Source: an uncultured Verrucomicrobiae bacterium
Lineage (GTDB): Bacteria; Verrucomicrobiota; Verrucomicrobiia; Limisphaerales; Palsa-1400
Assembly: GCA_963702845.1 (NCBI GenBank)
Contig: OY969763.1
Span: 5,792,001 to 5,856,000, forward strand
DNA: 64,000 nt
Direction: 5' to 3'
Made by a program: the position numbers and the translations under genes. A model generated the notes under the pieces. It was not told the origin of the DNA. It searched no databases and worked only from the letters and a program-made list of their open reading frames with translations. Numbering within the stretch: position 1 is the stretch's first letter; each line of letters opens with the position of its first letter. Positions 3,778 to 53,052 of this stretch are shown here, piece by piece.

Positions 3778-4452
3778 CTACATCACCATAGGAGAAACCA
3801 TTACGACGAACTCGCCCTTAATCGAGCGCTGTTGAAGTTGAGTGAGCAGATCGCGCGGTTTGCCCCGGAGAAACTCTTCGAATTTCTTGGTGATCTCGCG
3901 TGCGAGTACTACCTGGTGATTGGGAAATATATCGGCTAGTTCCTCGAGCATTTTGATAACGCGATAGGGCGATTCGTAGAACACCAGTGTGCCCGGAACA
4001 CTTTTTAATTTTTCGAGCAGGTTTCGGCGTTGGCCGGATTTGTGCGGAAGGAAACCGACGAAATGGAATTCGTCGCAAGGCAGTCCACTGGCGGTCAAGC
4101 CAGCGACGAGAGCGCATGGGCCGGGAATTGGTTCCACTTTGAAACCGGCCGCGATGGCTGCTTTAACGACACGTTCGCCGGGGTCGCTGATGCCGGGTGT
4201 GCCGGCGTCAGTGACGAGCGCCACTTTTTCGCCGCGTTGGAGACGTTGCAGGATTTCCTCGCTGCGCTTTGCTTCGTTGAATTGGAAATAGCTGAGCAGA
4301 GGTTTGGAGATTTCGAAATGCTTGAGCAATTGACCGGTGCGACGGGTGTCTTCGGCCGCAACAATATCGCATTCTTTCAACACGCGAATGGCGCGCAAAG
4401 TCATGTCTTCGAGATTGCCGATCGGTGTCGCGACCAAATAAAGGATGCTCAT
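3778..4452 (-). CDS. rsmI: 16S rRNA (cytidine1402-2'-O)-methyltransferase
   Basis: LYLVATPIGNLED, AEDTRRT, DAGTPGISDPG, YESPYR, REITK.FEE; start placed at MSILY (4452). Confidence 0.95.
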   Translation of the reverse strand: MSILYLVATPIGNLEDMTLRAIRVLKECDIVAAEDTRRTGQLLKHFEISKPLLSYFQFNEAKRSEEILQRLQRGEKVALVTDAGTPGISDPGERVVKAAIAAGFKVEPIPGPCALVAGLTASGLPCDEFHFVGFLPHKSGQRRNLLEKLKSVPGTLVFYESPYRVIKMLEELADIFPNHQVVLAREITKKFEEFLRGKPRDLLTQLQQRSIKGEFVVMVSPMVM

Positions 4453-4454
4453 AA

Positions 4455-6041
4455 TTAATCGCCCCACATGGGGCGGTCAGGCTCGACGTGGTTGACTTCG
4501 TAGCCTTTGAAGTACGTTAGCAAAGGTTTCAAATACTCCGCATCGCCGTCGGGCGCAAACACGACCTGCGCACGGTCGATGTTGGCGCGATTGTAAATCC
4601 ACTCAGTTTTTGGGTTGTGCTTTGGCGCGTATTGCACGAGCACTAGTTGTTTGTGCGGGGATTGTTTCAGCGTCGCAAGCATATCTGCGCGCTTGTATTG
4701 CCATTGCGTTTTTTGATCTTTCCACAAACGCGCGGTGAACATCGTCAAGCCGAGTAGGCATAAACCGATCAGTAGAAGTCGCGCCAATAAGCGAGTGCGG
4801 TCATGAGCGTGCAGTGTTCGAAAACCATAGAGCACCAGCGCGATGAACAACGGCAGGATGGGTGCGGAGTAATGTGGTTGTGCCCAAAAGGAGCTGCCGA
4901 GTGTGAGCCCAATTAGTGTGACGAACACGCACAAACAAATGCGGACTTGCGGTCTGCGCCAGAGGAAGAACGCCGGAATGATCAACAATGCAATAATCCC
5001 GTGTAAAAAATAGCGGTCGTATAATTTCAGTTTCGGCCAAAGCCCACGAACGAATCCGGAGAACGATCGTTGCATGTTGGCGTCGCGCTTTTCGTCGTCG
5101 TAGAAGCGATTGATTTCGAGGCGATGATTGCGGTCGTTTTTTGGATCGGCTTGCCAAATGAAGAGGGCGTTGCGGCTATACGTTTTTTCGTAGACTGCGT
5201 AAGGAGGTTGGAGCGGGTTGCCGGTGACGCGGAAATTGTAATAGGCATCGAATGTCAGAAACGGGAACACTCCTATAACTAAGGGAACAACGAAACGGCC
5301 AATGACATTCGATGGGCGCGTTTTCCAGAATGACCAAAGGCAAACGGCCGCAACCAGCGCGCACAACGCGGCTCCTTCGAACGGTCTTGTGATTGCCAAA
5401 ATGCCGGCGCCAATGCCAATCGCAGCGCTCGTCCACGGGCACGGTTTCGTCAACGTTCGAAACATTCCGCCGAGCACGAGCGCGCCGCCGAGCATCGGAA
5501 CGCAGCCGCCCCAGAAACTCCAATTCCACCACAGTACCTGAGCGTTGAAGAACGCAAGCGCCGCACCGGCGAGCGCCCAATTCGGTTTGAACAACGCGCG
5601 CAACATCCAGAAGAGTGCGGCGATGGCGAGCGCAGTTGAAATCCAAACGCCCAAAATTGGTTTCCATACGATTTGTCCAAACGCGAGAAACAGGCCTTGG
5701 CCCGGCTGGTATTTGGAGGCGTAGGTCGGTTGTTGCAAAACGTGGAACGTTTCGAAATAGCGCCAGAGTGGATGGGTGGGATTGGTCAGTCGGCCCTGCG
5801 CGAACGTGTCACCTTGCAGGAGGTAGCTGAACTCGTCGTGAATGCGAGGTTGAGGCAGACGATAGAATAGCGTCAGCGCGATGCTGAAGGCGAAGACTCC
5901 AAACGCAAGCCACATCATGGCCCAACGTCCGTTCGCAAATTGAGTGAGCCGCACTTCGATTCGATGAAAAAAGCGCCGGCCAAAATTCGGGCGGATCAGG
6001 GCAGAAATGCAGATGGCCGCAAGTATCAGGAACGCTTTCAT
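4455..6041 (-). CDS. Polytopic membrane protein, probable GT-C-fold glycosyltransferase
   Basis: Many TM segments; HDE.SY motif after the first TM helices and a KY.PG motif, typical of ArnT/PMT-like proteins. Confidence 0.55.
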   Translation of the reverse strand: MKAFLILAAICISALIRPNFGRRFFHRIEVRLTQFANGRWAMMWLAFGVFAFSIALTLFYRLPQPRIHDEFSYLLQGDTFAQGRLTNPTHPLWRYFETFHVLQQPTYASKYQPGQGLFLAFGQIVWKPILGVWISTALAIAALFWMLRALFKPNWALAGAALAFFNAQVLWWNWSFWGGCVPMLGGALVLGGMFRTLTKPCPWTSAAIGIGAGILAITRPFEGAALCALVAAVCLWSFWKTRPSNVIGRFVVPLVIGVFPFLTFDAYYNFRVTGNPLQPPYAVYEKTYSRNALFIWQADPKNDRNHRLEINRFYDDEKRDANMQRSFSGFVRGLWPKLKLYDRYFLHGIIALLIIPAFFLWRRPQVRICLCVFVTLIGLTLGSSFWAQPHYSAPILPLFIALVLYGFRTLHAHDRTRLLARLLLIGLCLLGLTMFTARLWKDQKTQWQYKRADMLATLKQSPHKQLVLVQYAPKHNPKTEWIYNRANIDRAQVVFAPDGDAEYLKPLLTYFKGYEVNHVEPDRPMWGD

Positions 6042-6104
6042 TAACGCGAGTTACCAGTAAACAGCAAACAGTAGTGAGTGAACAGTTCGAACCAATGAGA
6101 CTTG

Positions 6105-6956
6105 TTACTGCTTACTTGCTTCAACCACTCGTTCCAAAATCACATCGGTAATGTGCGGTTCGGTGCCGACGCTGCGCGTATACCAGACGAGTTTTCCTTT
6201 CTTCTCCGACGGATTGCGCCACGTTGGCTGCCCGCTTTTGAGCCGCTCCTGCACAATGCGTTTAGGTTCGCCGAGCATTTCGGGAATGTCCTCAACTGTG
6301 TGCATGCCGTCGCTGATAAAAAAAGGAACCACGATGATGTTCTTTTTTACCGCTAATGTGTAGCAGTCGACGATGCGCGGTTCTTCTTCTATGAAAATCG
6401 GGTGAACGTCATTGTATATATTCATCGCGGCGATCAATTCAACCTGATGCTCAATTGCTTTCCGCGAGTTATCGTTCGCGGTGGTTCCGTGACCGGCGAT
6501 GAACAGAGACGTGTCTTTTGGTTTGGGCGCACGCGGGAAAGGAAACTGCTCCACGATTTCCCTAGCTCGCCCAAGCAGGGCATTGGTCATGCTTTCATGC
6601 GTGCCGATGGGGTGACAGTAATATAAGGTTTGTGCGCCGCGTTTTTGGATGCGGTTGAAATCAGGTTCTCCTTTTTGGCGAAGACCGAGTTTTTCGGGAA
6701 TGGCCTCTTCGCTGAAGTAGCCTTCACTGATGAGAAGCGGAACGACAAATATTCGCGAGTTGGAAATCCCACTTACGACCACATCGACCAACGGTTGTTC
6801 TTTCCAAAATGCTGGCAGGACTTGTGCGAATATTTTGCGCCGACGTAACTTCTCGACGTGCTGACGCACGGGCGCGGCCGATTCGATGTTCACAGTGGAA
6901 CCGTGACCAACAATCACGAGCGAAGCATCTAAAAACAGTTCAGGCACGACGGTCAC
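6105..6956 (-). CDS. cbiX: CbiX/SirB-family sirohydrochlorin chelatase (two domains)
   Basis: Duplicated GHGS/GHGT motifs, VVPL/VVPFFISDGMH and VGT patterns. Confidence 0.8.
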   Translation of the reverse strand: MTVVPELFLDASLVIVGHGSTVNIESAAPVRQHVEKLRRRKIFAQVLPAFWKEQPLVDVVVSGISNSRIFVVPLLISEGYFSEEAIPEKLGLRQKGEPDFNRIQKRGAQTLYYCHPIGTHESMTNALLGRAREIVEQFPFPRAPKPKDTSLFIAGHGTTANDNSRKAIEHQVELIAAMNIYNDVHPIFIEEEPRIVDCYTLAVKKNIIVVPFFISDGMHTVEDIPEMLGEPKRIVQERLKSGQPTWRNPSEKKGKLVWYTRSVGTEPHITDVILERVVEASKQ

Positions 6957-7135
6957 AATTAAGATGTAAGAGCGCGGAATTAAGAAGTCAAAACGCCTCG
7001 GCGCTGGGTGATTAAAACACGATTTTAATCACACCTTTGATGCGGGCCTATTCTCTCGACTGCGTGATTAACGCTGCTGGGCTAATAACAAATGTACGCA
7101 GAGCGTGCGATTTGGTTTGGGCCTTTTGGATCGCG

Positions 7136-7528
7136 CTAGGCGCTGAAGCTTTCGCCGCAGGAACACGTGCTGGCAGCATTCGGATTTTTGACTTTGAAAC
7201 CGCCGTCCTGCAGTGCGTCGACGTAGTCCAACTCGCTGCCGGTGACGTAAAGCGCGCTCTTGGGATCCACCACCACTTTGATACCGCCGCTCTCGACCAG
7301 AATGTCGCGATTGGCCGGTTGATCCTGGAGGTCCATTTTATATTGCAACCCCGAACAACCTCCGCCGATAACTGCGACCCGCAGCACGCCGCCCGGACGT
7401 CCTTGTCGTTGCAACAATGATCCAACTTTTTTGGCTGCGCTGTCGCTCACCTTGATCAAGCGTTCGTCACCGACGCGAAAAGTCGGTTGAGCGCTTTTGG
7501 TGGAACTGTTCGGAACAGGCGCAATCAT
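7136..7528 (-). CDS. HesB/IscA/ErpA A-type Fe-S carrier
   Basis: GGGCSGLQY and NPNA..TCSCGESF motifs. Confidence 0.95.
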   Translation of the reverse strand: MIAPVPNSSTKSAQPTFRVGDERLIKVSDSAAKKVGSLLQRQGRPGGVLRVAVIGGGCSGLQYKMDLQDQPANRDILVESGGIKVVVDPKSALYVTGSELDYVDALQDGGFKVKNPNAASTCSCGESFSA

Positions 7529-7581
7529 TACGCTTAAAGTATCGTTTGGGAGAGCTTAACGTCAATGCTGACAGGTGCTGC

Positions 7582-9018
7582 CTATGCCGGTTGCACTTCG
7601 ACTTCGGTGTGCGTTTCCGGCGCGAGCGCTGGTTGGGAACTGTGGCGCAGTCGTTGCGCTTTCGCCTGGCGGCGCCACGTCTCGATGCGAGCGGTAAGCG
7701 CAAGCACTAACAGCCACAGCATGAGATTTCGTGGTTGGACAAGAACTCGTTCTAGAATGCTTTGTAGATAGTTGCACGAACAACCGACGCCGATACCAAT
7801 GCTGACGACACCGAGAAAATGGTTCCTGAAGAAAATTGCCGCACGGGCATTCAGGAACAGGAAGTAGATGATGAGAATCAGATAACTGATGTAACCTGGA
7901 TAACCCGTCTCGGATAGCAGGAGATAGTAATGGCTCTCGACGATTCCCTTCGATGTGTCCACTTCTTTGAACTCATTGTGGTCTTTGAAATATTGATCAA
8001 TCAGGCTGCCGTAGGGATAAGGCGGGTTGATGAGCACGCCGAAATTATTCCAGCCACCGCCGAGAGGATAATCGCGCAGCATTTCGCGCGACGCGATGTT
8101 GAGCATGCGGCGCGTTTCAGAGCTGTCGGCATTGTAGGTGTCGTTGAAACGATTGATGATTGTTTGCAACGATGCGGCGATACCGACGCAGACAACGGCG
8201 GCCAAGCTCACAACGACCAACAGCCGGCGAATTGTAATTTTGTCCGCCAATCCGATCCCCATCACAACAACCGTCCCGATCGCAAAAGCAACCAATCCAC
8301 CGCGTGACAAAGTGCATTCGACAATCCATGCCGCTGCGCAAAATCCCACTAAATACAGTGTGGAACGTTTTTGTTTTGGCCCCGCCGCGGCGCTCAGCAG
8401 AACGACGCCGATCAGGATAGAATACATCGACAAGGGGTTTTGGTGCTCGAATGTGCCGATGACCTGGTAGAGGTGATCGGCATATTTCAACTTCAGGCAG
8501 ACGATCAGTTCCCAAAACAGGATGAAACAAAACGTTGTGAGGAACCAGCGAACGCGTTCGGTGTTTTGCAAATAATTGTATGCCGCGACAAAGATCACGA
8601 TGACTTCGGCTGCTTTTACCGCGGCCATGCAGACGTATTCCGGATGCGGTGCGTTGATGATTGATACAAAACTCAAGCAAATGTAGACGACGTATAGAAT
8701 CAGGCCGGGCGGCAGCAAACGAAACCGTCGTGGCGATTCGAGAAAATTCGCAACGATCAACGCGCCTGCGAGTGCCTCGTTGAAATAGAAGTGATAGCCA
8801 CGCGCAGTGCCGCGATAGAACGGATGAAAATCGATCGTCAGACCCCATTCTGATGGTCCGAAAAAACCCGAGATCGTCATGAAACACATGACGAAAAACA
8901 CCCAGTCCTGAATTTTCGTTCGTCCTCTGATCAGCACGCCGAACAACGGCGCAAAAATAAAGTAAGCGAAGAACAGGACACAAAGCTTGATTAGGTCAAC
9001 AGTATCCAAACCGCTCAA
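7582..9018 (-). CDS. O-antigen ligase / Wzy-like membrane protein
   Basis: Polytopic; GTFEHQN, T.SRGG, P.G.G..NF and ES.Y...LSETG motifs of the Wzy_C family. Confidence 0.8.
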   Translation of the reverse strand: MSGLDTVDLIKLCVLFFAYFIFAPLFGVLIRGRTKIQDWVFFVMCFMTISGFFGPSEWGLTIDFHPFYRGTARGYHFYFNEALAGALIVANFLESPRRFRLLPPGLILYVVYICLSFVSIINAPHPEYVCMAAVKAAEVIVIFVAAYNYLQNTERVRWFLTTFCFILFWELIVCLKLKYADHLYQVIGTFEHQNPLSMYSILIGVVLLSAAAGPKQKRSTLYLVGFCAAAWIVECTLSRGGLVAFAIGTVVVMGIGLADKITIRRLLVVVSLAAVVCVGIAASLQTIINRFNDTYNADSSETRRMLNIASREMLRDYPLGGGWNNFGVLINPPYPYGSLIDQYFKDHNEFKEVDTSKGIVESHYYLLLSETGYPGYISYLILIIYFLFLNARAAIFFRNHFLGVVSIGIGVGCSCNYLQSILERVLVQPRNLMLWLLVLALTARIETWRRQAKAQRLRHSSQPALAPETHTEVEVQPA

Positions 9019-9203
9019 TGTTAAGCTGGATTTACCGCAATGAAATCAGGGCAACCTGCGAAGAATGCTTAAGTGTCGGCATGAGACCATTGAGGCAATG
9101 CACGCATCGAAGAAACAGCGACTGACCCGATGGTCAATTAACAGTGTTCCGCGCTTAATGGGATGACACATTCGGTGCCCGATTTTGGGTTTTAAAGGTT
9201 GTC

Positions 9204-10487
9204 ATGATGCAAGTCGCTCACGTATTGCGAAAATACGATCCCCGCGAATGGGGCGGAACAGAAACAGCGGTAAAACGGCTTTGCGACGGCTTGCGCGTCC
9301 ACGAGGTCAAATCAATCGCGTATGCGCCGCGTCTTTCGGGCGTGGTTCGTAGCGATCCGCTCGGTGCTGCCGGTCATCGCGTCGAAAGGTTCAAAGCCAT
9401 TGTTCCAGTTTGGGGAATCGGTGCGGAACAACGGCGCGCTCTCGTTGCGATGGGTGGGAACCTGATTTCACTCGATCTCATCTGGCAATTGGCGCGCGAG
9501 GCGAATATCGATTTGATTCACGCGCACACCCAGAATCGTCTCGGCGGAACGGCCCTGACGATCGCGCGTGCTCGTAATATTCCGCTCGTCGCGTCAATCC
9601 ATGGCGGAGTGCTCGATTTGCCGGCAACGGCGAAGGCGCATCTTGCTGAACCGTTGCGCGGCGGTTTTGAATGGGGAAAATTTCTTGGAGCATTGTTGCG
9701 CTCACGAAAGGTGCTCGAGCAGGCCGACGCGATTTTGACCTGCAATCGCAATGAAGCGCGATTGCTACAGGAGAAGTATCCAAATCAACGCGTGATCGTC
9801 CAGCCGCACGGGATTCCAGCCGACGATTACGCGCATGATCATCGCGCGGATGCGCTGGCGGCATTTCCGGGAATCGTCGGCAAACGCGCGTTGTTGATGG
9901 TCGGTCGCATCGACACAGTCAAGAACCAGAGTTGGGTGGTCGAGCAGGCGCCGTGTATTTTCCAACGTTATCCGGACACAGTTTTGGTCATGGCTGGCGC
10001 TAGCACCGACGACGCTTATCTCGCAAGTATTCGAGCACAGATTCAGAGGCTCGGTTTGCAGAATAACATCATCATGACCGGTGGCCTGCCACCGCAGGAT
10101 CGGCGGTTGATTGGATTGTTTCAGCAGGCAGTGGCGCTGGTGTTGCCGTCGATCTCGGAACCGTTTGGTTTGGTGATTTTGGAAGCGTGGGCCTCCGGTA
10201 CACCGGTGATTTCGAGTCGCACATCAGGGGGCAGCGAGCTGATTCAACACGGCGAGAACGGTTGGTTGTTCGACCTTTCTGATCCAATCGGCTTTCACGA
10301 ATCGCTGCATGAGGCGCTGACCAAACCTCAGGCGACGAAGCGCGCAGGGGAACTTGGCCGCGAGCGAGTGCGCGCACAATATGACTCGGTCGTAGTCGCG
10401 GCCCAGGTGAAATGCTTGTATGAGGAGCTAATCGAACGGAAGCGCGGAGCGCGTCTTGCGCCGAGGCTTCAGGAGGGGCGGGCATGA
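9204..10487 (+). CDS. Glycosyltransferase family 4
   Basis: GG.E N-terminal motif, VGRI...KN, PS.SEPFGLVILEAWASG.PVI. Confidence 0.92.
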   Translation: MMQVAHVLRKYDPREWGGTETAVKRLCDGLRVHEVKSIAYAPRLSGVVRSDPLGAAGHRVERFKAIVPVWGIGAEQRRALVAMGGNLISLDLIWQLAREANIDLIHAHTQNRLGGTALTIARARNIPLVASIHGGVLDLPATAKAHLAEPLRGGFEWGKFLGALLRSRKVLEQADAILTCNRNEARLLQEKYPNQRVIVQPHGIPADDYAHDHRADALAAFPGIVGKRALLMVGRIDTVKNQSWVVEQAPCIFQRYPDTVLVMAGASTDDAYLASIRAQIQRLGLQNNIIMTGGLPPQDRRLIGLFQQAVALVLPSISEPFGLVILEAWASGTPVISSRTSGGSELIQHGENGWLFDLSDPIGFHESLHEALTKPQATKRAGELGRERVRAQYDSVVVAAQVKCLYEELIERKRGARLAPRLQEGRA

Positions 10488-11311
10488 AATATGTGATCAT
10501 TCGAGATGATGACACCAACGCGTTGATGCCGGTCGAATATCTGGAACGGCTCTACCGGCCATTTATTCAGCGTAACCTGCCGATAAACCTTGCCGTCATT
10601 CCGAACGTTTCAACCAAGGCGAGCTACGCCCCCGGCAGACTGGAAAAATTCTTGCTTGCTTATCGCGGACAAGAAAACGGCTGCGTCCCGATCGGCACCA
10701 ATGCCGAGTTGCTTCGTTATTTGCGCTGCTTCCCGCAATACAATTTCGTCCAGCACGGTTCTCGTCATGAATTCGTCGGCGACCATTACGAGTTCGATCA
10801 CGAAGACCGCGCTGAAATTGCGAAACGGCTCGACGAAGGAATCCAGTTTTTCGAACAGGCGGGACTTGGACGGCCGCGGGGGTTTGTCGCGCCGTATGAC
10901 CAACTCTCGCGTGTCAGCATGGAAGAAGTTGCGAAACGATTCGAAGTTATTTCAACCGGATGGTTTGAATTGGGCCGCATTCCACCGTCCTGGTGGCCGA
11001 AGTACGCATTGAAAAAAATGCGCCATTCGCCGCACTGGCGCGTCGGACGCACCGCTTTGCTTTCCCATCCCGGCTGCCATTTGTCGTATCACCGCTCCTA
11101 CAGTTTGATGCTGCAGGAAATCGAACGCAGCATCGCGAGCCGCAGGCTCACCGTGCTGGTGACCCATTGGTGGGAATATTTCCGCGACGGCAGGCCTGAT
11201 GACGCATTCATCGATGTGCTGCATCGCACCGCCGACTATCTCGCCAGTCGCAAAGATTTGAAAGTTGTCTCCTTCAACGACGTTGCAGACAGAAAGGTCG
11301 CACTCAACTGA
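10484..11311 (+). CDS. Polysaccharide deacetylase-like protein (DUF2334 / NodB-like)
   Basis: IRDDD, LAVIP, QHG..H, FVAPY, THWWE motifs; ATGA-coupled to the upstream GT4 gene. Confidence 0.75.
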   Translation: MKYVIIRDDDTNALMPVEYLERLYRPFIQRNLPINLAVIPNVSTKASYAPGRLEKFLLAYRGQENGCVPIGTNAELLRYLRCFPQYNFVQHGSRHEFVGDHYEFDHEDRAEIAKRLDEGIQFFEQAGLGRPRGFVAPYDQLSRVSMEEVAKRFEVISTGWFELGRIPPSWWPKYALKKMRHSPHWRVGRTALLSHPGCHLSYHRSYSLMLQEIERSIASRRLTVLVTHWWEYFRDGRPDDAFIDVLHRTADYLASRKDLKVVSFNDVADRKVALN

Positions 11312-45417: not shown

Positions 45418-46128
45418 TCACGGCGAGCCCAGTAGAGATTTTATTTCCGGTTCTGTCAACGCTCGCCATTTACCCTCCGGCAATTCTCCAAGTTTAATGC
45501 GTCCAATCTGCGTCCGTTGCAATCGTAAAACGCGAAAGTTCTGGCTCTCAAACAGCCGCCGCACCTCGCGGTTTTTTCCTTCGCCGAGGGTCAATTCCAC
45601 AATCGTGCTGGCGTTACTGACGCGCAGGATCTTCGCGCGTTCGGCCCGCAGTGTTTCGCCTTCGTGCGTGATGCCTTCGGTAATCTTCTTCAACACGTCG
45701 CCTTCGAGACGGCCTTCGACCTGCACCATATAAATTTTGCGAACGCCGTAACGCGGGTGAGTCAGCTTGAGGCAAAAATCACCGTCATTCGTCAAAAAAA
45801 TCAAACCGTCGCTGTCATAATCCAGGCGCCCGACGGTGACGAGGTCTGCCCATTCGCGCGGGAGCAGTTCGTTCACCTTGGCGCGATCGTCATCGGCCGC
45901 TTTCGTGCACATAAAGCCGCGCGGTTTGTTTAGCGCGATGTAGAGCTTTTTCTTCGCACGAATCGTTTTGCCGTCGACCGCCACCTTGTCGTGGAGCGGA
46001 TCGATTTTCGTGCCCAGCTCTTTGACCAGCTTGCCATTCACGGCAACGCGCCCGTCCAGGATGATGCGTTCACTGGCGCGACGCGATGCGATGCCGGCTT
46101 CGGCAAGATGTTTTTGCAAACGAACCAT
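45418..46128 (-). CDS. rluB: rRNA pseudouridine synthase (RsuA/RluB family)
   Basis: RLQK.LA.AG.ASRR S4 domain, LNKP.G, VGRLD.DS.GL..LTNDG, EGKNREVRR. Confidence 0.85.
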   Translation of the reverse strand: MVRLQKHLAEAGIASRRASERIILDGRVAVNGKLVKELGTKIDPLHDKVAVDGKTIRAKKKLYIALNKPRGFMCTKAADDDRAKVNELLPREWADLVTVGRLDYDSDGLIFLTNDGDFCLKLTHPRYGVRKIYMVQVEGRLEGDVLKKITEGITHEGETLRAERAKILRVSNASTIVELTLGEGKNREVRRLFESQNFRVLRLQRTQIGRIKLGELPEGKWRALTEPEIKSLLGSP

Positions 46129-46189
46129 AATTCACGTTACATCGAAAAGGGCGCGAAACACTACTGCGATTTAGTGCGACGCTAGTTTC

Positions 46190-46313
46190 AAGGTAGGGAT
46201 GACGCGCTGCGTCGTCCTCTTTCCATCGTCAACTTTAACGACGGACGACGGGAGATTTGAACAAATTATTTTGTCGTTCGCTGCCGCGAACCGCGCGATC
46301 GTCCCTACCTTAG
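46190..46313. repeat. REP doublet with GTAG ends; includes the left 70-bp inverted-repeat arm (46244-46313)
   Basis: aaggtagggatgacgcgctgcgtcgtcc ... gatcgtccctacctt; 46244-46313 matches the reverse complement of 48071-48140 at 62/70 positions. Confidence 0.8.
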
Positions 46314-48066
46314 TACCAGCCTGGATACGGCGTTGGCTTGGGAATTGGGTCGTCCGTGTGATAGGACGACCACGTGCCGTCGTCGTTCATCACCGAAATG
46401 CCGATGCCGCCACCGCTCTTCGGCGCTTCACTCGCCAAGGCGCCAGCCCAGGCGATATCGCAATGGCTCGCCGGGTTGAGCGCGTTTTTGCCTTCGGCGA
46501 AATTCCATTTGTTGCCGTTGAACATTTTTTTGAGCGCATAGTAATCGCCGGCGATATCGTGTTCGCTGCTCGGGAACCGCTTTTGCGCGACGCTCAACTG
46601 GTTCATCAGGTTGAAACCAAGGTCATGCTTCTTGCTGGCGAAGTTCACCGATTTCCAGCGCGAACCGAATTTCTGCGCCGCTTCCCAACAGATCTGGCGG
46701 CCCAGACCGGTTTCGTCGCCGGCGCCTTTGAGCGAACCGGTCGTGTTCATGAAATAGAACAGGACGGTCTTGAGAAAGTGCCAGTCTTCGGTGCGACAGG
46801 TGAACAAGGCGCGAAGCCAATGTTCGTCGCCCTTTTTCTCGTCGATATAAATGACGGCCAGATCACCCGTGCCACTGGCGGCGACGTCGAAGCCGAGCCG
46901 GAACGTCGGCGTGCTGTGGATGGGATTGAAATCCAGCGATGGAAACTTCTTGCACAGGAACGCTTCGATGTTGTTTTCGCGTTCGCGCGCGCTCGACGGA
47001 TTGAACGCACCGAATTGTTGTTGGACTTCGTCCGCTTCGAGATGAACACGCTCGATCTTGTAATCGTGACGGCAACGTTCGATGGCACTCCACTCAACGA
47101 TGTGATTGGTGGCCGCCCCGAGCGGATTGCACATGTAGGCTTGTTGGAACACTTCCTCATCGCGCGCGCGTGCTTTGCAATCGGCCAGGAATTGATCCGC
47201 AGTAAACTTAGTCCCGCGCGATTTGTTGATGACTTCGACGAGGCCGTGGCCGATGGCGTCCTGGATGGTGACTTTGTAGTAGAGGTTCCAGGGGACGTTT
47301 GGGCGCACATCGGAGCGCGGACAGCCTTGTCCGCGCGTGTTCGTCGTCGCAGAAGCAGTGGAACCTTCGACAGTGTTCGATGTAGCAGGAACTAAAACAC
47401 GCGGACAAGGCTGTCCGCGCTCCGATGCTCCCACCGTCACCCTCGCCTCCTGCGCGAACTCATTAAACAACGTATCCTCCCCATCGTGACTCGACCACAC
47501 GGCGAGATCATAACCCCACGTCACGCGACCCTGCGCCGTTTCCCAGAGCAAACGCGCGTTGGGATGTTTGGCGAATTCATCGAGGCCGACGTCGCCGCCG
47601 TAAACAGCCATCGCCTGCGGATTGGCTGAGAACGCGATGATGCGCGAGCCGTTGTCGAATTTGATCACGCCGACTTTGACATCTTGCGTGAACGCCGACG
47701 GCCGGCCTTTCCATCCAACCGATTGACGCTCAGCGTCTCTTCCCCGTGCGTTTTGATCGTGCGAGTGAGATCGAAGACCTCCGCAAACTTGTAACATTGG
47801 CGGACGTATTCGAGCGCACTGGCATAATCTTTGGTCGCGAAAAGATAATCGCGATTCGGATGCAGCAATCGCTTGCGCACATTTTTAAATCCATCGGCAT
47901 AAGTCCAGCCGATGCGAACGGATTTCTCCGCGAGCGCCACGACTTGTTTGCCGGCGGCGTGTAGTGTTTCTTCACCCTCAATCCAGGCGATCTGATGTGG
48001 CATGAAATAGTCGGCCAATTTCACCGACCCAATATTTGGTTTCGTATTTATAATCATAATTTTCAA
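46310..48066 (-). CDS. Mu gp28-like terminase large subunit (1-bp frameshift near 47710)
   Basis: F.PHQ..W (Q motif), KSVRIGWTY (Walker A variant), VGLDEFA (Walker B), WSSH.G...F, F.QAYMC.P; nuclease motifs LGFDVA...D, DETGLG, HCDIAWA.ALA. ORFs 47665-48066 and 46310-47797 join at gatggaaaggc. Confidence 0.85.
47308..47427. repeat. 120-bp palindromic element inserted in frame in the terminase gene
   Basis: Perfect 28-bp terminal inverted repeats catcggagcgcggacagccttgtccgcg / cgcggacaaggctgtccgcgctccgatg; each arm is itself a hairpin. Confidence 0.9.
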
Positions 48067-48070
48067 CTTT

Positions 48071-48140
48071 CTAAGGTAGAGACGGTCGCGCGGTTCGCGG
48101 CAGCGAACATCAAAACAATTTGTTCAATTCTCACGCCGTC
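48071..48140. repeat. Right 70-bp inverted-repeat arm
   Basis: ctaaggtagagacggtcgcgcggttcgcggcagcgaacatcaaaacaatttgttcaattctcacgccgtc; inverted copy of 46244-46313 with 8 mismatches. Confidence 0.85.
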
Positions 48141-48162
48141 TTCATTTTTTGCATTTTCAGAT

Positions 48163-48969
48163 TTAGTTAATGGTTTGTTGTTCGTTTATTGGTGTTTCGG
48201 TCGACGCAGCGGCGCCGTCCGTATTCTGATTTTGTGATGGCGCTGGCGCTGGCGCCGGACCGTCCAAAGCTTCAATGTGTTGGCGGCGATGGCGTCCCAA
48301 TCCCAACACTCGATCCACAATATCAACGACCGCCCGATGATCAGATTCATCCCCAAACGGCTTCTTCGGATCCCGCAACTTGAGTTCCTGCGCCTCCTCC
48401 CGTTCCGCCGACCGCCGATACTTCCGCGTCCGCAACGCTTCCCTGCTCAACTTCGGTACAAGCGATAACAACCGCACCAAATTGCGCGGATCCTTCTCAG
48501 AATTATCCCGGAGTTCCTGCGGTGTGAGATCAGAAAGCACGCCACCCACTCGCGCGGCGAATAATTTGACGATCAGATCAGGAATCTCCTCCGGTTCCGC
48601 CTTCGTCAGCAGATCGACAACACGGTCAGAATTCCCATTGAGAAGAGCGCTTCGCTCCTGCTCCTTCACCCAATCCCGATACCCACCCTGGGCCCAGCGC
48701 GAAATATTCTGCTTCGTCAACCCCTTGCCCTCATCGCCGAGCGTCTCAATGATCTTCTCATACTCCACCCCATCATCGATCCACTCATTGATGTCCTCGC
48801 GAACAGCCTTCGGCAACCGCGCAATCTTCCCATTGCGACGGTGACCACTCGCCCCCGGCACCGCATCAAGGTAGGGATCGCGCGCTGCGCGGTCCGCCTG
48901 CTGCTCGTCCGGCTCTCGCCCTTCGACTATCGACTTTCGACCCTCAAGTTCATTTATATTTTCATTCAT
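48163..48969 (-). CDS. Mu gp27 / DUF3486-like protein (putative small terminase)
   Basis: GKIARLP..VR..IN.....G..Y..II..L......ISRW HTH-like N-terminal region; directly upstream of the gp28-like gene, as in Mu-like phages. Confidence 0.6.
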   Translation of the reverse strand: MNENINELEGRKSIVEGREPDEQQADRAARDPYLDAVPGASGHRRNGKIARLPKAVREDINEWIDDGVEYEKIIETLGDEGKGLTKQNISRWAQGGYRDWVKEQERSALLNGNSDRVVDLLTKAEPEEIPDLIVKLFAARVGGVLSDLTPQELRDNSEKDPRNLVRLLSLVPKLSREALRTRKYRRSAEREEAQELKLRDPKKPFGDESDHRAVVDIVDRVLGLGRHRRQHIEALDGPAPAPAPSQNQNTDGAAASTETPINEQQTIN

Positions 48970-49261
48970 GCCCCCATTTTGCCCCGCGCCTGAACGAAAA
49001 GCTTCTTAGTGAAACCGACCTTTTACTAGGAAAGTGATTTGCAAGGGCTTGCGACTGGTTTAGCCACGGATTGGACTTGAAGAAGCTTGCATCAATCGGG
49101 TGATGTGTGGTCGTACGAGAATCCGAAACGAAACGTTTTTCAAGTTTGGCCGAAAGACGTGCCTTAATTCGAAGGAGAGGCGAGACAAAAAAAGAAGAGG
49201 TATTGGACATCACAACAACTTGGAAAGAATCGGCTTTTACGAAGAAGAAATGCGATGTTGG

Positions 49262-50158
49262 TCAGCTGAAAAGCGGGACCAAATCGAGAGCGAACTCAAA
49301 ATCCTTCTTTACCGACTTAAAGATAGGGACCGGCTTAGATCTCTTTTGGTTGAGCGCAAGAATTTCCTCTTCATGAGGTTTGCTCATATCGCAGCCGACC
49401 GTGATAGAAACGAGCAAGTCGTCTACTCGCACACAGCGCTTTGGAACGGTCGCGACGCCGATTCGCCATTCCTTTTCGTGGTGCCAACATTGAGCCTTGC
49501 TCAGCAGAATCTTATCTCCGAAAGCACCCGGATTAGCAAAATCCATTTCGAGCGCGCTAAACTTCGGATAGACATCTAGGTAATTCGCGTGCTCGGCAAG
49601 GCATAGCAAATTCTCTGCTGCCCGTTTGTATTTTAAATAATAACCCCTATGGTTCGCACCATAGTAAGCAAAAAGGAGAATGTCATTGGGAATCGCCGAA
49701 AGCGACAGCACGCCGTACCTGTCAATACGCTCTTGCATCCGTCGCCAGTGATCGTCGCGCACATGTTCGTTATCAACGACGGTCGTTCCTTTAACTTTTT
49801 TGATAAGCGCCCACTTCTTCCGCTTCTTGATCCCGGGATATTGTCGGTCGAGAGCTTTACTAAAGTATTTTTTGATTTGGTCTTCCGTGCCTTCAAAACT
49901 GTATCTAACTTTCGAATCAAAGGGATCGTTGAACATCGCTGGACTAGCGAAGAAAACCTCGCCGCGAGCTATCCATGACGCCGAGTGTTCATCGTGAGGC
50001 CTATACTTATATAGGAATTCAGGAGTTGCATCGAACTCATCGGGAACTGCAGGGCTGATTAAGGGGCAGCCGGCGCAGTCCGACACAACCTGCGCCGTAT
50101 CTGATTTCAATTTCAGATATACGCGCTGTTTACATTGCGGACATTTGCCTATGACCAT
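49262..50158 (-). CDS. DUF2971-like protein
   Basis: LYKYR, F.SP..FNDPFD, LSLS....ILL.AYY..NH.G, K...W.HEKEWR, I.VG motifs; N-terminal CPQC...C..C. Confidence 0.75.
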   Translation of the reverse strand: MVIGKCPQCKQRVYLKLKSDTAQVVSDCAGCPLISPAVPDEFDATPEFLYKYRPHDEHSASWIARGEVFFASPAMFNDPFDSKVRYSFEGTEDQIKKYFSKALDRQYPGIKKRKKWALIKKVKGTTVVDNEHVRDDHWRRMQERIDRYGVLSLSAIPNDILLFAYYGANHRGYYLKYKRAAENLLCLAEHANYLDVYPKFSALEMDFANPGAFGDKILLSKAQCWHHEKEWRIGVATVPKRCVRVDDLLVSITVGCDMSKPHEEEILALNQKRSKPVPIFKSVKKDFEFALDLVPLFS

Positions 50159-50192
50159 ACTACGACGCAGCGGTTTCCATTAACTGCATCCT

Positions 50193-50732
50193 TCAATTTG
50201 CCTTTTCGCCATAATAGTGATTGCGAACCCTAGCTACCCAGTTTTGGAAAACTGAATCCAGGTCGTCAAGAGCCTGAACTCCTGCCGTGGGCATCGGCAT
50301 TTCGTGAACAAAAATTTCCGTTGTGCCCACACTGAAGATGCCACCCTCAACTCCTTTCTCGCGGAAGATCATAGTCGGGATGCCAGCGCTAAATAGAATG
50401 CCTGCTTCCAACTGATTCCACGGCGTGGGAAAACTAACAATTTCTTTTGTAGCTACCGCTTTAGAGCTTCCACGCTTCCACTCCCCGCCTTTGGCGCGAA
50501 ACTGCTCAAACCCGAGAATAATCCCGCCGGAACAATGCTTAACCATCCTTAGCACCTCTTTGAGCGGCACGTCATTCGGATAATCACTTCGACCGAGGGC
50601 TCGCCATTCAAGTTTATAGCGGCGCACTAAATCGAGTATCAACTTTGCGCTCGCCTCCTGCGCTGGGCTTAAATTGTCAGGACTTGGTGCTGACACGAAT
50701 ACTGGAATGCGCATTCTTGGAATATTCAGCAT
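50193..50732 (-). CDS. TIR-like / nucleotide-binding alpha-beta protein
   Basis: VFVS first strand, PL.EV...V..C.G.IILG, TPWNQLEAG, P..IFRE..VEGGIF; pattern resembles TIR/DUF4062-type folds. Confidence 0.5.
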   Translation of the reverse strand: MLNIPRMRIPVFVSAPSPDNLSPAQEASAKLILDLVRRYKLEWRALGRSDYPNDVPLKEVLRMVKHCSGGIILGFEQFRAKGGEWKRGSSKAVATKEIVSFPTPWNQLEAGILFSAGIPTMIFREKGVEGGIFSVGTTEIFVHEMPMPTAGVQALDDLDSVFQNWVARVRNHYYGEKAN

Positions 50733-50835
50733 AGGGAATCAGGAAATTACTCTTAGCACTATGTAATTTACAACCGAAATAGGCAGGACAGATATACTCC
50801 TTCGACGCTGTCGTGAAACTTCGCCTTTTGTGACT

Positions 50836-50940: not shown

Positions 50941-51060
50941 TAGTGGGAACGTTGCGAACGGATGTTTTGATCTCGGGTTTTATTTTCAAGTCGTGGAACT
51001 CGACAACGATTGCCCACCAGCCTTGATCATCGTATGCGACTGCCGCGTAGTGACTCGCCA

Positions 51061-51160
51061 AGCGTTTGGAGTGCGTGCGGCTTGCCGCCGCTTTGGGATC
51101 GCGGGCTTCGATTAAGTTCGTATCCCAAAGCGGCAGCTCAGCTGCCGCACTCCATACGCT
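51061..51160. repeat. REP doublet / long hairpin
   Basis: agcgtttggagtgcg...gccgctttgggat / atcccaaagcggc...cgcactccatacgct. Confidence 0.75.
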
Positions 51161-51183
51161 TCGCGCCTTCCAAAACGCGTTCC

Positions 51184-52293
51184 TTATTTCTTTACCCCCA
51201 ACAAATAGCGCGCTACATCGGCGCCCGCCGGATCACCATCACTCGTGCGGCCTTTCTCGGTTTTTCGCAGACCGAGAACGTTCGTGCAATAAGTCGCAAA
51301 ACTCTGTTCCCGGTGGCACGGATAGAGCTTGGGCCGTTTGACGCTCGGCCGGATCGTTTTAAGCAGGTCCACATACGTCCAGTTGAAACGTTTCACCAAC
51401 GGCCACAGCGTGATCACCGCCGTGTCCACGTCTTCGTAATTCCACACCCGCGGCGTATCGGCGTCGAGCGTCGCAGCCATGGCGCGCTGTTTAGGCGAGT
51501 CGGGGTAATGTTCGACCGCCGCTTCGAACTGTGCCTGGTATCTCGCCTTCGTCTCGGCGTCAGCAGTGGCGATGTGATTTCGAACGAAAGCACCGGCAGC
51601 GAGATCCCGTTTCTCAGCATCCGGATCAAACATGGCAGGTTGGCAATACCACATCGCGTGCGTCTTCAGGTGAAGAATTGAGTCCAGCCATTCGCAAAAG
51701 TAAATGAGCGCGACGCGCGGGTCGCCAAAGCTGGGATGCATGATGAAGGGTTGCTCGATCACTGCTTGTGGTTTTAGCTGAACTTCGGTGGCGAAGTTCA
51801 TGACCGCTTCACGACAGATGCCAGCGAGAGGGTCGTCGAAGCTGGAGAAACGGAGAATATGTTGGAAGAAGGTGCGGGATTTTGTTTGGTCGAGGGCGGC
51901 CAGTTGAAGGATGAGTTGATCGCGCACGATCTCGTCCGCGCGGGAAGCGTCAGCGGACGACGCGGGACCGTTCGGTTGGCAAGCGCGCTCGTCGTTAGCT
52001 TCTGTCCGGCACAAGGCGTTGCCGATGATTTCGGCGAAGGCGCGTGCGGATTGTCCGGATTGAAGCAAACGGGTGCGCGCTACTTTTTTCTCGGCGTATT
52101 CCTTAGCGACCAAAACCGAGGCGCGTCCAATCCAACCCTGGATCATGAAGGCAGACATATAGAAGTTGTCCTGCTCAAGACGACAGAGTTCGTAGGCGTC
52201 CTCCATCGTTCCCATGAATGGTAAGACGAGGCGCGGAGTCGGTTCGTTGTTGTTTTGATTTTCGTTATTTTTATTTTCGTTTTTATTTTTCAT
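51184..52293 (-). CDS. Hypothetical protein (369 aa)
   Basis: Long ORF with Asn/Lys/Glu low-complexity N-terminus and an aromatic/Cys-rich C-terminal block (WPLVKRFNWTY..L, YPC..E.SFATYC.NVLGLRK); no family recognised. Confidence 0.7.
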   Translation of the reverse strand: MKNKNENKNNENQNNNEPTPRLVLPFMGTMEDAYELCRLEQDNFYMSAFMIQGWIGRASVLVAKEYAEKKVARTRLLQSGQSARAFAEIIGNALCRTEANDERACQPNGPASSADASRADEIVRDQLILQLAALDQTKSRTFFQHILRFSSFDDPLAGICREAVMNFATEVQLKPQAVIEQPFIMHPSFGDPRVALIYFCEWLDSILHLKTHAMWYCQPAMFDPDAEKRDLAAGAFVRNHIATADAETKARYQAQFEAAVEHYPDSPKQRAMAATLDADTPRVWNYEDVDTAVITLWPLVKRFNWTYVDLLKTIRPSVKRPKLYPCHREQSFATYCTNVLGLRKTEKGRTSDGDPAGADVARYLLGVKK

Positions 52294-52663
52294 GCGCCCA
52301 TTGTCGCAAAGTCACTTGGACAAAGGCTGTCCAAGTGAATTTTTTTCCCGGAAAAAGATGTCGCCTCTATCTACTTGATACCGAGCGAATTAAACAAAAA
52401 CGCCGCTTTTTGGCGTAAAATTTTTCAGGTAGGGCGGGCCGGCATCCGCGGTTAGCGGTGCCATCGACCAATTTGTTCTAACTCTCCGCGCCCGCCCGCG
52501 CCCGACCGCCCGCCGTCCGCGCCCGCCGCCATGCGCGCCGAGAATTTCTTTCTTAATAAAAACCTCAATCCACTAAGAAGCTTTTATTCCAGCGCCGTAG
52601 TAACCTCGCCGCATGTGTGAATTTGAATTAATCGCGCAGCCGGCGACCGCCACAAAAAAGGCG

Positions 52664-52765
52664 AGTGCGACTGACTGCGACTGCCACCGCGACTGGGGTG
52701 CGACTGCACTCCAATTTGTCGCGCCTGGTCGCAACCAGTCACGCCCAGTAACACCCAGTCGCACT
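52664..52765. repeat. Inverted array of short tandem units (tgcgactg)n / (cagtcgca)n
   Basis: Four gcgactg units on the left and about five 10-bp-period degenerate cagtcgca units on the right; the outer 10 bp are perfectly complementary. Confidence 0.7.
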
Positions 52766-52784
52766 AACTTTTTTCGGTTTTTTT

Positions 52785-52918
52785 CGTATCGCAGACTTCC
52801 GAGTCTGCTGTGTCGTATGGCGAGGCCGACGTTCGGCTTTCCAAACCTGCAGGGCTTCCGTTACACACCTGCCGACTTGGAAGTCGGCGATACGGCAGGT
52901 TTGGAAACCTGCGATACG
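52785..52918. repeat. REP doublet-like palindromic element
   Basis: cgtatcgcag...ctgcgatacg termini; internal tttccaaacctgc / gcaggtttggaaa and gccgactt-gg-aagtcggc stems. Confidence 0.75.
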
Positions 52919-53052
52919 GGTTCGGCATCAGCGTCGGGCAGTCCTCGGTTGTTACAGGTGCGGAGGTTGTTGCTATTCCTCCATGCCGTTGTTACACTCC
53001 GCGAGTTGGACGTGGAATTGGCCACGACAGCGAAAAACAACAACGCCCTGCC

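Follow-up and report, generated by a model that had tools for sequence, protein, structure and literature searches.

Gene transfer agents (GTAs) have their terminase within a head-tail cluster and are inherited vertically. Among the PICI core genes that PMC10085698 describes for SatelliteFinder are an integrase, a regulator (alpA/merR/stl) and a primase-replicase, and the cf-PICI cores given there also include terL, portal, head-tail adaptor and connector. Satellites are reported in PMC9122126 to carry hotspots of antiviral systems. For incomplete prophages, the survey in PMC7744054 reports a preferential loss of the genes for terminase and portal and an enrichment of those for integrase and transposase. 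We found no description in the literature of portal-less, stand-alone pairs of small and large terminase genes (TerS-TerL). One such pair lies in the window (the whole stretch of 64,000 nucleotides that was analysed). It belongs to a family of lone pairs that is widespread among soil bacteria and for the most part intact, and so is probably not just the debris of a prophage.

A reading of this DNA made from its letters alone (the sequence-only reading) had placed adjacent gp27-like and gp28-like genes here, and both ORFs lie on the minus strand at the positions it gave (Table 1). The gp27-like product matches Pfam Phage_Mu_Gp27 (PF11985) at E 1e-4 and 23.2-23.9 bits, which is under the 28-bit gathering cut-off; in PHROGs it matches phrog_426, 'terminase small subunit' (E 1.1e-5). 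It is clearly homologous to paralogues at 2.18 and 2.60 Mb, which score 30.3 and 27.7 bits against PF11985 (29.3 with neighbours). The conserved core of the protein begins near GHRRNGKIARLPK (alignment A3); the first ~40 codons of the gene are variable and overlap a dispersed-repeat fragment at 48866-48895 (repeat D1). The AF2 model is all-helical (mean pLDDT 75). With this model a Foldseek search of the PDB returned nothing at E <=1e-3, TerS chains appearing only at E 1.6-2.3, and a wide VIA search gave only generic helical hairpins with Z up to 7.1. The label 'Mu-like' is a loose one: in the majority of viral relatives the portal is of HK97 type and carries a fused MuF domain. The models for Mu transposase (PF02914) and Mu portal (PF06074) had no match in the genome, and both were also silent in every control genome.

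TerL is spread over two frames. The N-terminal frame, whose true start is likely the ATG at 48057, is 72% identical over 119 aa to an intact paralogue (L001, an intact near-twin pair at 4.75 Mb in the same genome) and 79% identical to the metagenomic protein P0001. The second frame is 87% identical over 479 aa to the TerL of L001, passes Terminase_6N (E 1.3e-5, 25.4 bits against a cut-off of 22) and matches phrog_5909 (E 7.7e-13); Terminase_6C is matched only by six TerL paralogues of another clade (clade B), and not by the clade of the window's TerL. The large subunit had been read as keeping its ATPase and nuclease motifs, and all the blocks are indeed present in the window copy, in columns invariant across nine relatives (alignment A2), the motif names being our reading of conserved blocks and assigned by no tool. 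A palindrome sits in the variable linker between ATPase core and lid, where four of the nine relatives in A2 have unrelated inserts of 45-90 aa and five have none. Its genome match is itself only, and the sole Rfam hit, a plant miRNA model matched through the hairpin, has no meaning. The sequence-only reading had noted neither this palindrome, nor the copy of the 70-nt repeat between the two genes, nor the candidate defence gene next to the pair.

Table 1. Features of the lone terminase pair and its surroundings (window coordinates; motif names are our reading)
Feature	Position	Strand	Details
rluB	46128..45418	-	3' of repeat; PseudoU_synth_2 E 3e-19
Repeat block after TerL stop	46181..46320	.	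70-nt repeat 46244-46313 plus second fragment ending ...TCATCCCTACCTT (I1, I10, D1; BLAST)
TerL second frame (Walker B, linker, RNase-H-like nuclease)	46310..47797	-	495 aa; true coding begins at break, 47710
TerL nuclease blocks	start 46897, 46726, 46468	-	LGFDVAASG, GDETGLG, SHCDIAWA, respectively
TerL palindrome	47308-47427	.	120 nt; in-frame insertion; 37-nt arms 92% complementary (I2)
TerL conserved block	47497-47471	-	WSSHDGEDT
TerL Walker B block	47599-47570	-	GGDVGLDEFA
TerL N-terminal frame	47665..48066	-	133 aa; holds Walker-A-like block
TerL one-base deletion	47710..47711	-	single gap in alignment A1 against L001
TerL Walker-A-like block	47931-47902	-	AEKSVRIGWT
70-nt dispersed directional repeat with internal GC hairpin	48071..48140	.	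between TerS and TerL
gp27-like small-terminase (TerS) gene	48163..48969	-	268-aa ORF; Pfam and PHROG matches
Conserved leader upstream of gp27-like gene	48970..49053	-	near-identity in same-genus genome G002
PDC-S31 candidate single-gene defence family gene	49262..50158	-	298 aa; PADLOC PDLC04990 E 3.3e-45
Cargo gene	50193..50732	-	179 aa; no match in Pfam, PHROGs, PADLOC or NCBIfam
Conserved gene bounding cargo slot	51184..52293	-	369 aa

The two TerL frames are split by one base that is absent between 47711 and 47710 relative to intact L001. The intact P0001 reads ...LSVNRLDGKGRPSAFT... across the break site (protein LDGKGRPSAF), and this together with the L001 sequence shows the break to be the contraction by one base of an A-run (GGAAAGG), either within the run or beside it. 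Programmed frameshifting at the junction was set aside because intact relatives code the junction in one frame. The window copy, which as assembled is not one uninterrupted frame, may itself be broken, the loss from the A-run being either a sequencing error or the very recent death of this copy. Environmental contigs about 93% alike (three DNA runs from one study, each with 0.05 of the words) included none that spans 47710/47711, and no RNA run turned up for this stretch. The rate of indels in the assembly appears uneven: a lepA-like gene has at least four frame changes, whereas among relatives' ORFs (~13,500 aligned aa, some loci counted twice) frame changes occur in one ORF alone, a spurious antisense frame.

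As first read, only a repeat and rluB follow the TerL stop. This 70-nt repeat and its copy between TerS and TerL form an inverted pair (I1) with 89% complementarity, and about 13-16 copies are found genome-wide, in either orientation and mostly beside housekeeping genes, for which reason the repeat was rejected as a common control element of phage-like genes. On the other side of the pair, the leader is nearly identical in the same-genus genome G002, where the gp27-like coding part is about 82% identical, and a 55-nt stretch of it (49053-48999) has 84% identity to a site ~620 nt upstream of the gp27-like paralogue at 4.75 Mb. It may serve as a promoter or 5' leader; a simple sigma-70 scan of the leader gave no promoter, and promoter and terminator scans did no better than shuffles. 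There are no tRNA genes in the window.

Across 48750-50750 the GC content drops to 47-50%. The PDC-S31 product also matches phrog_1762 (E 2.2e-28) and has no Pfam match. The 369-aa protein beyond the cargo matched nothing in Pfam, PHROGs, PADLOC or NCBIfam and nothing usable in the ESM Atlas, but its gene has an orthologue in G002 (L054:4327-5451; 87% aa identity, dN/dS 0.148) and a homologue in L049 (27% identity, E 4e-29), where it immediately precedes TerL. Both gp27 and the 369-aa gene are shared with G002 at a dS of about 0.5, the dN/dS of gp27 being 0.28 (67 codons), which speaks for their retention in situ. The cargo upstream of the pair differs there, HD-CE/HATPase standing in place of PDC-S31. 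Further defence-type matches upstream of the pair are PDC-M48B (L045), PDC-S02 with a type I specificity subunit (L048), a CapP-like peptidase (L046) and, in L047, an AAA ATPase with HEC-01A as its best PADLOC match and AbiLi and AriA also matching. Lone pairs often border genes matching known or candidate defence families, such genes adjoining the pair in at least six loci. Three ORFs separate gp27 from the pfkB kinase; neither in these nor further out did Pfam, PHROGs or NCBIfam match an integrase, regulator or primase-replicase family, and none appeared in the flanks of ten relatives; nor was an integrase, replication gene, pac/cos site or terminal repeat found at the lone pair.

Are such pairs inert remnants of prophages or head islands? 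On this account erosion proceeds from the capsid end, the TerS-TerL end survives because deletions reaching into beneficial upstream cargo are purged, and the pair is idle. The counts in the genome descend as it would have them: tblastn finds 13 gp27-like loci and eight TerL loci, Phage_portal has two matches only (2.30 and 5.25 Mb) and Phage_capsid one (5.24 Mb), these being the nearest to the window, in which portal and capsid are absent, as the sequence-only reading had said. One locus, L010, has TerS-TerL-portal and then immediately hom, and resembles an intermediate. In clade B, the second TerL clade of the genome, lone and portal-linked TerLs interleave (6 changes of label against 7.3 when shuffled, 99/500 shuffles being as low). 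Erosion would also account for the broken copies, namely that of the window as assembled, a TerL with a TAG (L006), nine of 55 full-length copies elsewhere and truncations such as the internal one in L111, and the defence-type genes upstream would be the cargo.

The pair is no isolated case. Six pairs in the genome are portal-less (window, L001, L007, L008, L009, L011) and abut housekeeping genes directly (argS, purH, a radical-SAM gene, rluB). It had been asked at the outset whether homologues are repeatedly orphan, and they are. Nine MAG loci have at least 53% identity and DNA downstream, and in none of the nine does a portal or capsid turn up inside 5 kb. Metagenome loci were counted, without de-duplication, where the 3' end of TerL was complete and 800 nt or more followed it; of these 27, L130 has a portal and the other 26 match neither the portal nor the capsid HMMs. 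Combined, 35 of the 36 chromosomal relatives with enough downstream DNA are without a portal. The best 80 metagenome loci were picked by likeness to a lone copy and not de-duplicated, some of them duplicating MAG contigs, and our own portal and capsid HMMs reach only trained families, though the portal of L062, outside the training set, was found. A MAG locus of 42% identity (L052) has portal-protease-capsid, and L047 ends at TerL. In the IMG/VR viral loci (L058-L071), a portal is present in 13 of 14 and a capsid was found in 10 of 14; ten of the portals are Phage_portal plus Mu_F, one is Portal_Mu, and those of L062 and L069 were detected by our own HMM and phmmer. Viral contigs have the gp27-like family directly upstream of TerL (own HMM: L060 E 1e-53, L066 E 1e-52), and their TerLs are 40-57% identical to the window family.

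In a quick tree of clade A, eight chromosomal lone TerLs and L052, whose position inside the group is unsettled, form one deep clade (SH-aLRT 99) apart from the viral TerLs; the label 'lone' changes three times there against a shuffled mean of 7.5, and 0/500 shuffles are as low. Nucleotide similarity between genomes covers gp27 and TerL only and ends at the TerL stop codon, so TerS plus TerL is the only unit common to the compared loci. In every lone locus examined the 3' boundary is sharp, lying a few hundred bases at most past the TerL stop, and none has a portal stub. Single deep ancestry and sharp, stub-free ends count against inert remnants.

Selection points the same way. NG86 dN/dS values for the window are 0.077 and 0.146 against L001, 0.115-0.129 against G028 and 0.19-0.25 against G001, well below 1, as the sequence-only reading had proposed to look for. 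Of the 40 listed differences from the ~93%-alike environmental contigs, 35 fall at third codon positions (64 more lie outside this listing), and the nuclease halves of the window copy and L001 differ almost solely at synonymous sites. An open single frame is kept in 46 of the 55 full-length copies despite pairwise dS values of 0.5 to >2. Purifying selection has acted on the module, whose ATPase and nuclease blocks are all invariant, although the low dN/dS may be largely older than the loss of the head genes. The suggestion that homologues follow the host phylogeny did not hold: the pair is patchy and multi-copy, present in 10 of 31 related genomes, and the protein clusters with a match of E <=1e-20 or better number at least 756 (the labels Acidobacteriota and Binatota among relatives come from MAG binning). 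Such a distribution is more like that of a mobile accessory element than of a host gene that has been domesticated, and the patchy, multi-copy, partly decayed pattern suggests turnover by gain and loss.

Between the two possibilities first offered, a prophage remnant or a host-retained ATPase-nuclease, the portal-less relatives, low dN/dS and open frames favour a retained or self-propagating module, with the patchy spread and the frame break of this copy on the other side. Complete Mu-like prophages are not where the closest homologues are found, and the copies do not evolve neutrally, which largely answers the objections foreseen in that reading. Inert remnants are in our judgement a somewhat unlikely explanation.

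We tentatively prefer, as a possibility and not yet a probability, a satellite-like module made up of the terminase alone, which would hijack the capsids of phages and be gained and lost over time. Judged from sequence, the putative module is in origin the first two head-operon genes of a phage family with the order TerS, TerL, portal (often MuF-fused), protease and HK97-type capsid. When a phage of the matching family assembles procapsids in a cell with a resident pair, the resident TerS would bind a recognition site of its own, within the island or close to it, and the resident TerL would dock onto the foreign portal, cut, and fill the capsids with the island and the chromosomal DNA beside it. 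The island would thereby spread and the phage be starved of capsids. Several matters weigh against the satellite-like module: no integrase or the like was found that would explain its way into new genomes or across phyla, the clade-B interleaving and falling counts resemble head modules worn away time and again from one side, and nine of 55 copies, as well as that of the window as assembled, are broken. A more specific version, which we consider unlikely, is that of an integrase-less minimal phage parasite that would package in situ from the chromosome at its own site, giving particles with the defence island and flanking host genes, and so would be a platform for lateral transduction and a capsid-stealing defence in one.

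Could the pair instead be a dedicated anti-phage system? The TerS-like protein would then recognise the packaging site or terminase of an invader and TerL would cut or mis-package its DNA, the spread of the island not being its role. The defence-type neighbours, the diversity of the 13 TerS-like paralogues in one genome, the accessory, patchy distribution and the invariance of both catalytic domains are all in keeping with this. However, PADLOC-DB 2.0 has no family for the gp27-like proteins (window, L001) or for TerL (L001) and NCBIfam no model for either protein, the neighbour count is a raw one, and genuine packaging would explain the retention of a whole translocase no less well. We think this reading quite improbable.

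Dispersed packaging of the GTA kind, with lone pairs filling the capsids of a resident head-only island with chromosomal DNA, is very unlikely. The genome does hold an island, at 5.240-5.249 Mb (L006; protease-capsid-connector-portal-TerL), that could supply such capsids, and multi-locus GTA genomes are on record in PMC5026251. But the TerL of this island carries the TAG noted above and belongs to the other TerL clade; the two portals of the genome match Phage_portal only and no MuF-fused portal, the type adjoining most viral clade-A TerLs, was found in it; lone pairs occur in many genomes with no head island seen in the flanks; and the patchiness among relatives is unlike vertically kept GTAs.

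That the RNase-H-fold nuclease of TerL is a transposase and the gp27-like protein its DNA-binding partner is scarcely credible: the unit is multi-copy, its boundaries are those of the two genes and the 70-nt inverted repeat brackets the window TerL, but TerL as an IS so bracketed was rejected because the repeat is genome-wide, in either orientation and mostly by housekeeping genes, and because flank tests on nine units turned up a repeat better than shuffles in L001 alone, an inverted match of 17 nt, and in the remaining eight none, inverted or direct.

If active, the lone pairs would be smaller than any other satellite-like element that we know of, consisting of the two terminase subunits and lacking genes for capsid, integrase or replication, and would be a widespread route by which defence islands and neighbouring chromosomal genes move among soil bacteria; lone pairs would also mark defence-gene hotspots in poorly studied phyla. 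If inert, they would be an unusual case of polar prophage decay, contrary to the terminase loss reported in PMC7744054.

The pair resembles prophage remnants in consisting of phage-derived genes between housekeeping genes, with some copies broken. Unlike the remnants as summarized in the survey cited (PMC7744054), lone pairs have kept their terminases, have no integrase and sharp boundaries, and are mostly intact. With GTAs (RcGTA type and the multi-locus genomes described in PMC5026251) the window shares phage-derived packaging genes in a host chromosome, possibly apart from structural genes, but there is no head-tail cluster beside the pair and it is patchy among relatives. Like PICIs and cf-PICIs, as described in PMC10085698, it is chromosomal and has its own terminase subunit (terS in PICIs, terS plus terL in cf-PICIs), which in those elements redirects packaging; of the cores listed there, only terS and terL are found in the 6.5-kb island or in relatives' flanks. 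The packaging module of the MuF-portal phages (L058-L071) differs in having a portal after TerL in 13 of 14 viral loci and a capsid in 10, whereas none follows in the window or in 35 of 36 chromosomal relatives with enough downstream DNA; in the quick tree the lone copies group in a clade apart. It is like the window in having the same two families in the same order, with TerL 40-57% identical and the ATPase and nuclease blocks conserved.

An early reading of the window from sequence alone had placed adjacent gp27-like and gp28-like genes at 46310..48969, and this arrangement was recovered: a gp27-like ORF is followed by a large terminase (TerL) lying in two frames. The 268-aa ORF matches phrog_426 'terminase small subunit' (TerS) at E 1.1e-5 and, below the 28-bit cut-off, Pfam Phage_Mu_Gp27 (E 1e-4, 23.2 bits). 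The 495-aa frame matches Terminase_6N (25.4 bits, cut-off 22) and phrog_5909 (E 7.7e-13), and jointly with the 133-aa ORF makes up the large terminase. PADLOC and NCBIfam models gave zero matches for either protein of the pair. Past TerL the order is repeat, rluB, SH3 protein and folD; on the other side, beyond three upstream genes, lies a pfkB-type kinase on the opposite strand, so that the island from rluB to the kinase measures ~6.5 kb. GC drops to 47-50% across 48750-50750, and neither an integrase nor a tRNA gene was found in the island or the window.

Features of the gene pair, its neighbours and associated loci (G000:C1, the genome contig; G002, a same-genus genome; L numbers, loci)
Feature	Sequence	Coordinates	Strand	Remarks
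gp27-like ORF	window	48969..48163	minus	268 aa
TerL, first frame	window	48066..47665	minus	133 aa
TerL, second frame	window	47797..46310	minus	495 aa, overlaps 133-aa ORF in a different frame
rluB	window	45418..46128	minus	downstream of TerL, after repeat
Upstream gene	window	49262-50158	minus	PADLOC candidate PDC-S31, E 3.3e-45
Upstream orphan gene	window		minus	179 aa
Upstream gene	window		minus	369 aa, without known family
In-frame palindrome of TerL	window	47308-47427		120 nt
70-nt repeat, inverted pair	window	46244-46313, 48071-48140		on both sides of TerL
REP-like palindromic elements	window	51056-51165, 52655-52928
70-nt repeat copies (examples)	G000	3540244-3540312, 4433245-4433316, 4487568-4487635, 4496692-4496758
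Upstream gene	G002	L054:521-3916		HD-CE/HATPase, 1131 aa
Upstream gene	L045			PDC-M48B, E 1.7e-134
Upstream genes	L048			PDC-S02 and type I specificity subunit
Upstream gene	L047			AAA ATPase, best PADLOC match HEC-01A; AbiLi and AriA match too
Upstream gene	L046			CapP-like peptidase
gp27-like gene after TerL	L049, L051, L053	L049:3054-5840, L051:7980-10283, L053:1271-3362		one sub-clade
lepA-like (EF4) gene	L008	267-2100		G000:C1 about 2,173,966-2,175,800
gp27-like, TerL, portal, 842-aa frame	L010	8354-14791		G000:C1 about 2,301,953-2,308,390
Head-only island	L006	about 1500-10752		locus at G000:C1 5,238,500-5,258,499
Putative defence or mobile island	L003	14189-19142		G000:C1 about 4,494,188-4,499,141

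Alignment with the intact paralogue at 4.75 Mb shows that the window TerL is short by exactly one base at 47711/47710. An intact metagenomic TerL (P0001, 594 aa) is ~80% identical over both window frames, has the same C-terminus (...PGWY) and reads LSVNRLDGKGRPSAFT across the break point; since it reads through this point and the alignment has a one-base gap, the defect, as assembled, is one base lost at an A-run. Public sequencing runs sharing part of the stretch carry ~93%-alike relatives, and 0 contigs bridge the break site. Assembly indels exist elsewhere: a lepA-like gene with well-conserved amino acids requires at least four frame changes, and represents either local assembly indel errors or a pseudogene. 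In the relatives' ORFs (~13,500 aligned residues, some loci counted twice) frame changes are confined to one ORF, a spurious antisense frame. As to the palindrome in TerL, the linker where it lies carries unrelated 45-90-aa inserts in 4/9 aligned relatives and no insert in 5/9, and we therefore regard it as tolerated variation rather than damage.

The 70-nt repeat flanking TerL is genome-wide and directional, occurring in both orientations and chiefly next to housekeeping genes. It has an internal GC hairpin, is intergenic, numbers about 13-16 copies and occurs also in G002. Beside one copy, at L003, lie an exonuclease gene, DUF3631 and DUF4041 genes and a gene with a Cap17-like ATP nucleosidase domain, possibly marking a defence or mobile island. 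A ~50-nt piece (about 52865-52920) of the second REP-like element has many copies here and in same-order relatives.

The genome is a single 6.03-Mb contig with a second pair at 4.753-4.756 Mb, whose TerL (594 aa, intact) is followed by argS, with no portal. The two TerLs are mosaic (nucleotide identity 72-92% in the ATPase half, 93-100% in the nuclease half) and their gp27-like partners are just 30% identical. By tblastn the genome has eight TerL loci, two in the window TerL's own clade, A, and six in clade B (which matches Terminase_6C), and 13 gp27-like loci. A Pfam scan of 114 ORFs around six of its loci found four further pairs directly abutting housekeeping genes (L007, L008, L009 and L011), one TerS-TerL-portal set followed by hom (L010), and a head-only island (L006) of protease, capsid, connector, portal and a TerL bearing a TAG. 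In L010 the portal is immediately followed by an 842-aa frame that ends in 420 residues of homoserine dehydrogenase; its first 418 residues have no match. L006 runs prohead protease, HK97-type capsid, GH32-like gene, head-tail connector, portal and interrupted TerL, ending at gcvH, with no tail genes within the 20 kb scanned. That the window pair stands without portal or capsid was borne out: neither lies nearby, and the whole genome has Phage_portal in only two places and Phage_capsid in one. The SPP1_portal profile had no match in the genome; Portal_Mu and Mu transposase core profiles had 0 matches, their controls being likewise silent.

How widespread are such lone pairs? A TerL match is present in 10/31 related genomes and is patchy over genera, which speaks against the proposal that the pair follows host phylogeny. 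The folD-SH3-rluB block is conserved family-wide and the DNA beyond rluB varies; in the same-genus genome G001 the 2 kb adjoining rluB lack DNA similarity to the TerL side of the window, and the ORFs there have no Pfam family. GTDB species genomes gave 11 loci with close relatives, in Verrucomicrobiota and in MAGs labelled Acidoferrum and Binatia. Portal and capsid are absent within 5 kb in 9/9 of those with at least 53% identity and downstream DNA; the most distant (L052, 42% identity) has portal-protease-capsid, and one further locus is cut. From metagenomes 80 of 230 loci were kept, 27 of them having the whole 3' end of TerL and 800 nt or more beyond it; with duplicates retained and some repeating MAG contigs, our own portal and capsid HMMs matched one of the 27 (L130) and left 26 unmatched. 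The portal HMM recovered the portal of the viral contig L062, a sequence outside its training. The expectation that homologues are repeatedly orphan thus held in both sets. Two clade-A TerL loci per MAG occur in the Acidoferrum- and Binatia-labelled MAGs (L045/L051 and L047/L049), phyla outside Verrucomicrobiota, and reflect either cross-phylum transfer or binning error; the metagenome contigs L119 and L104 are near-equal in length to those MAG contigs.

IMG/VR yielded 14 viral contigs with TerL 40-57% identical. A portal comes next in 13/14 (ten Phage_portal fused to Mu_F, one Portal_Mu, two found with our own HMM or phmmer), a capsid was detected in 10/14, and the gp27-like gene is immediately upstream of TerL. 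Because viral relatives carry gp27-like-TerL ahead of the portal, the pair appears to be a phage family's genuine TerS and TerL. The chromosomal lone copies and L052 group in one clade (SH-aLRT 99) of a quick tree, separate from the viral TerLs; the 'lone' label needs three changes versus 7.5 when shuffled (0/500 shuffles as low). A protein search returned no fewer than 756 clusters at E ≤ 1e-20, many labelled 'phage FluMu gp28-like protein' by JGI and several on 176-286 kb contigs.

Nucleotide similarity across loci of different genomes covers the two genes alone, ending at the TerL stop. The pair is a phage-derived unit of just two genes, and almost every chromosomal locus sampled lacks head genes in the flanks examined. 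Purifying selection acts on the pair, whose catalytic blocks are all invariant. As had been anticipated, pairwise NG86 dN/dS is well below 1: 0.077 (N-terminal part, dS 2.2) and 0.146 for the window against the 4.75-Mb copy, 0.115-0.129 against the related genome G028 and 0.19-0.25 against G001. Against G002 (dS ~0.5) the 67 gp27 codons compared give 0.28 and the 369-aa gene gives 0.148. Third codon positions hold 35/40 listed differences in environmental contigs (our own count; 64 more exist beyond these). MAG and metagenome loci hold 55 full-length copies, of which 46 have one open frame and 9 are broken; a few internal truncations occur besides. Neutral debris would be less intact than this, and a core host gene would be broken less often; an accessory or selfish module, gained and lost over time, fits the pattern.

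We tentatively favor a reading, possible though short of probable, in which the pair still packages DNA, into capsids of an infecting matching-family phage or of a resident head island. Packaging would begin at a site bound by the pair's own TerS; the island and neighbouring genes would be moved and the phage robbed of capsids. Against this reading, searches found neither an integrase or replication gene nor a packaging site or end repeats. The declining counts from TerS through TerL and portal to capsid resemble polar erosion, as does the interleaving of lone and portal-linked copies in clade B; both lend some weight to the rather unlikely alternative that the pairs are inert remnants retained through linkage to selected cargo. 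The low dN/dS may be older than head-gene loss; the largely open frames are more than neutral debris would show.

The pair is patchy, multi-copy and often adjoins swappable cargo; in a descriptive tally, genes of known or candidate defence families lie upstream of it in six loci (table). G002 retains the gp27-like gene, inside which its contig ends, the near-identical upstream leader and the 369-aa gene. Between the last and the gp27-like gene the window has the PDC-S31-like gene (49262-50158) and the 179-aa orphan, and G002 the 1131-aa gene; because these contents differ, the slot looks like a cargo-swap hotspot. A pure defence system would suit such company and is improbable, the more so GTA-like dispersed packaging genes. 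The sequence-only reading had named a prophage remnant or a retained ATPase-nuclease, GTA-like or anti-phage; purifying selection, mostly open copies and portal-less relatives uphold it in part, and patchiness and the frame break in the window copy weigh against it. A transposon is very improbable.

Our literature search found no account of portal-less TerS-TerL pairs. In the description of PICI and cf-PICI (PMC10085698), the core components named include integrase, regulator and primase-replicase, with portal, head-tail adaptor and connector as additional cf-PICI core; none of these was found with the pair, which sets it apart from those islands. A survey of incomplete prophages (PMC7744054) reports preferential loss of terminase and portal genes and enrichment of integrase; the lone pairs show the opposite pattern, with terminase retained and no integrase. 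By analogy, the pair would act as terminase modules do in satellites that divert packaging.
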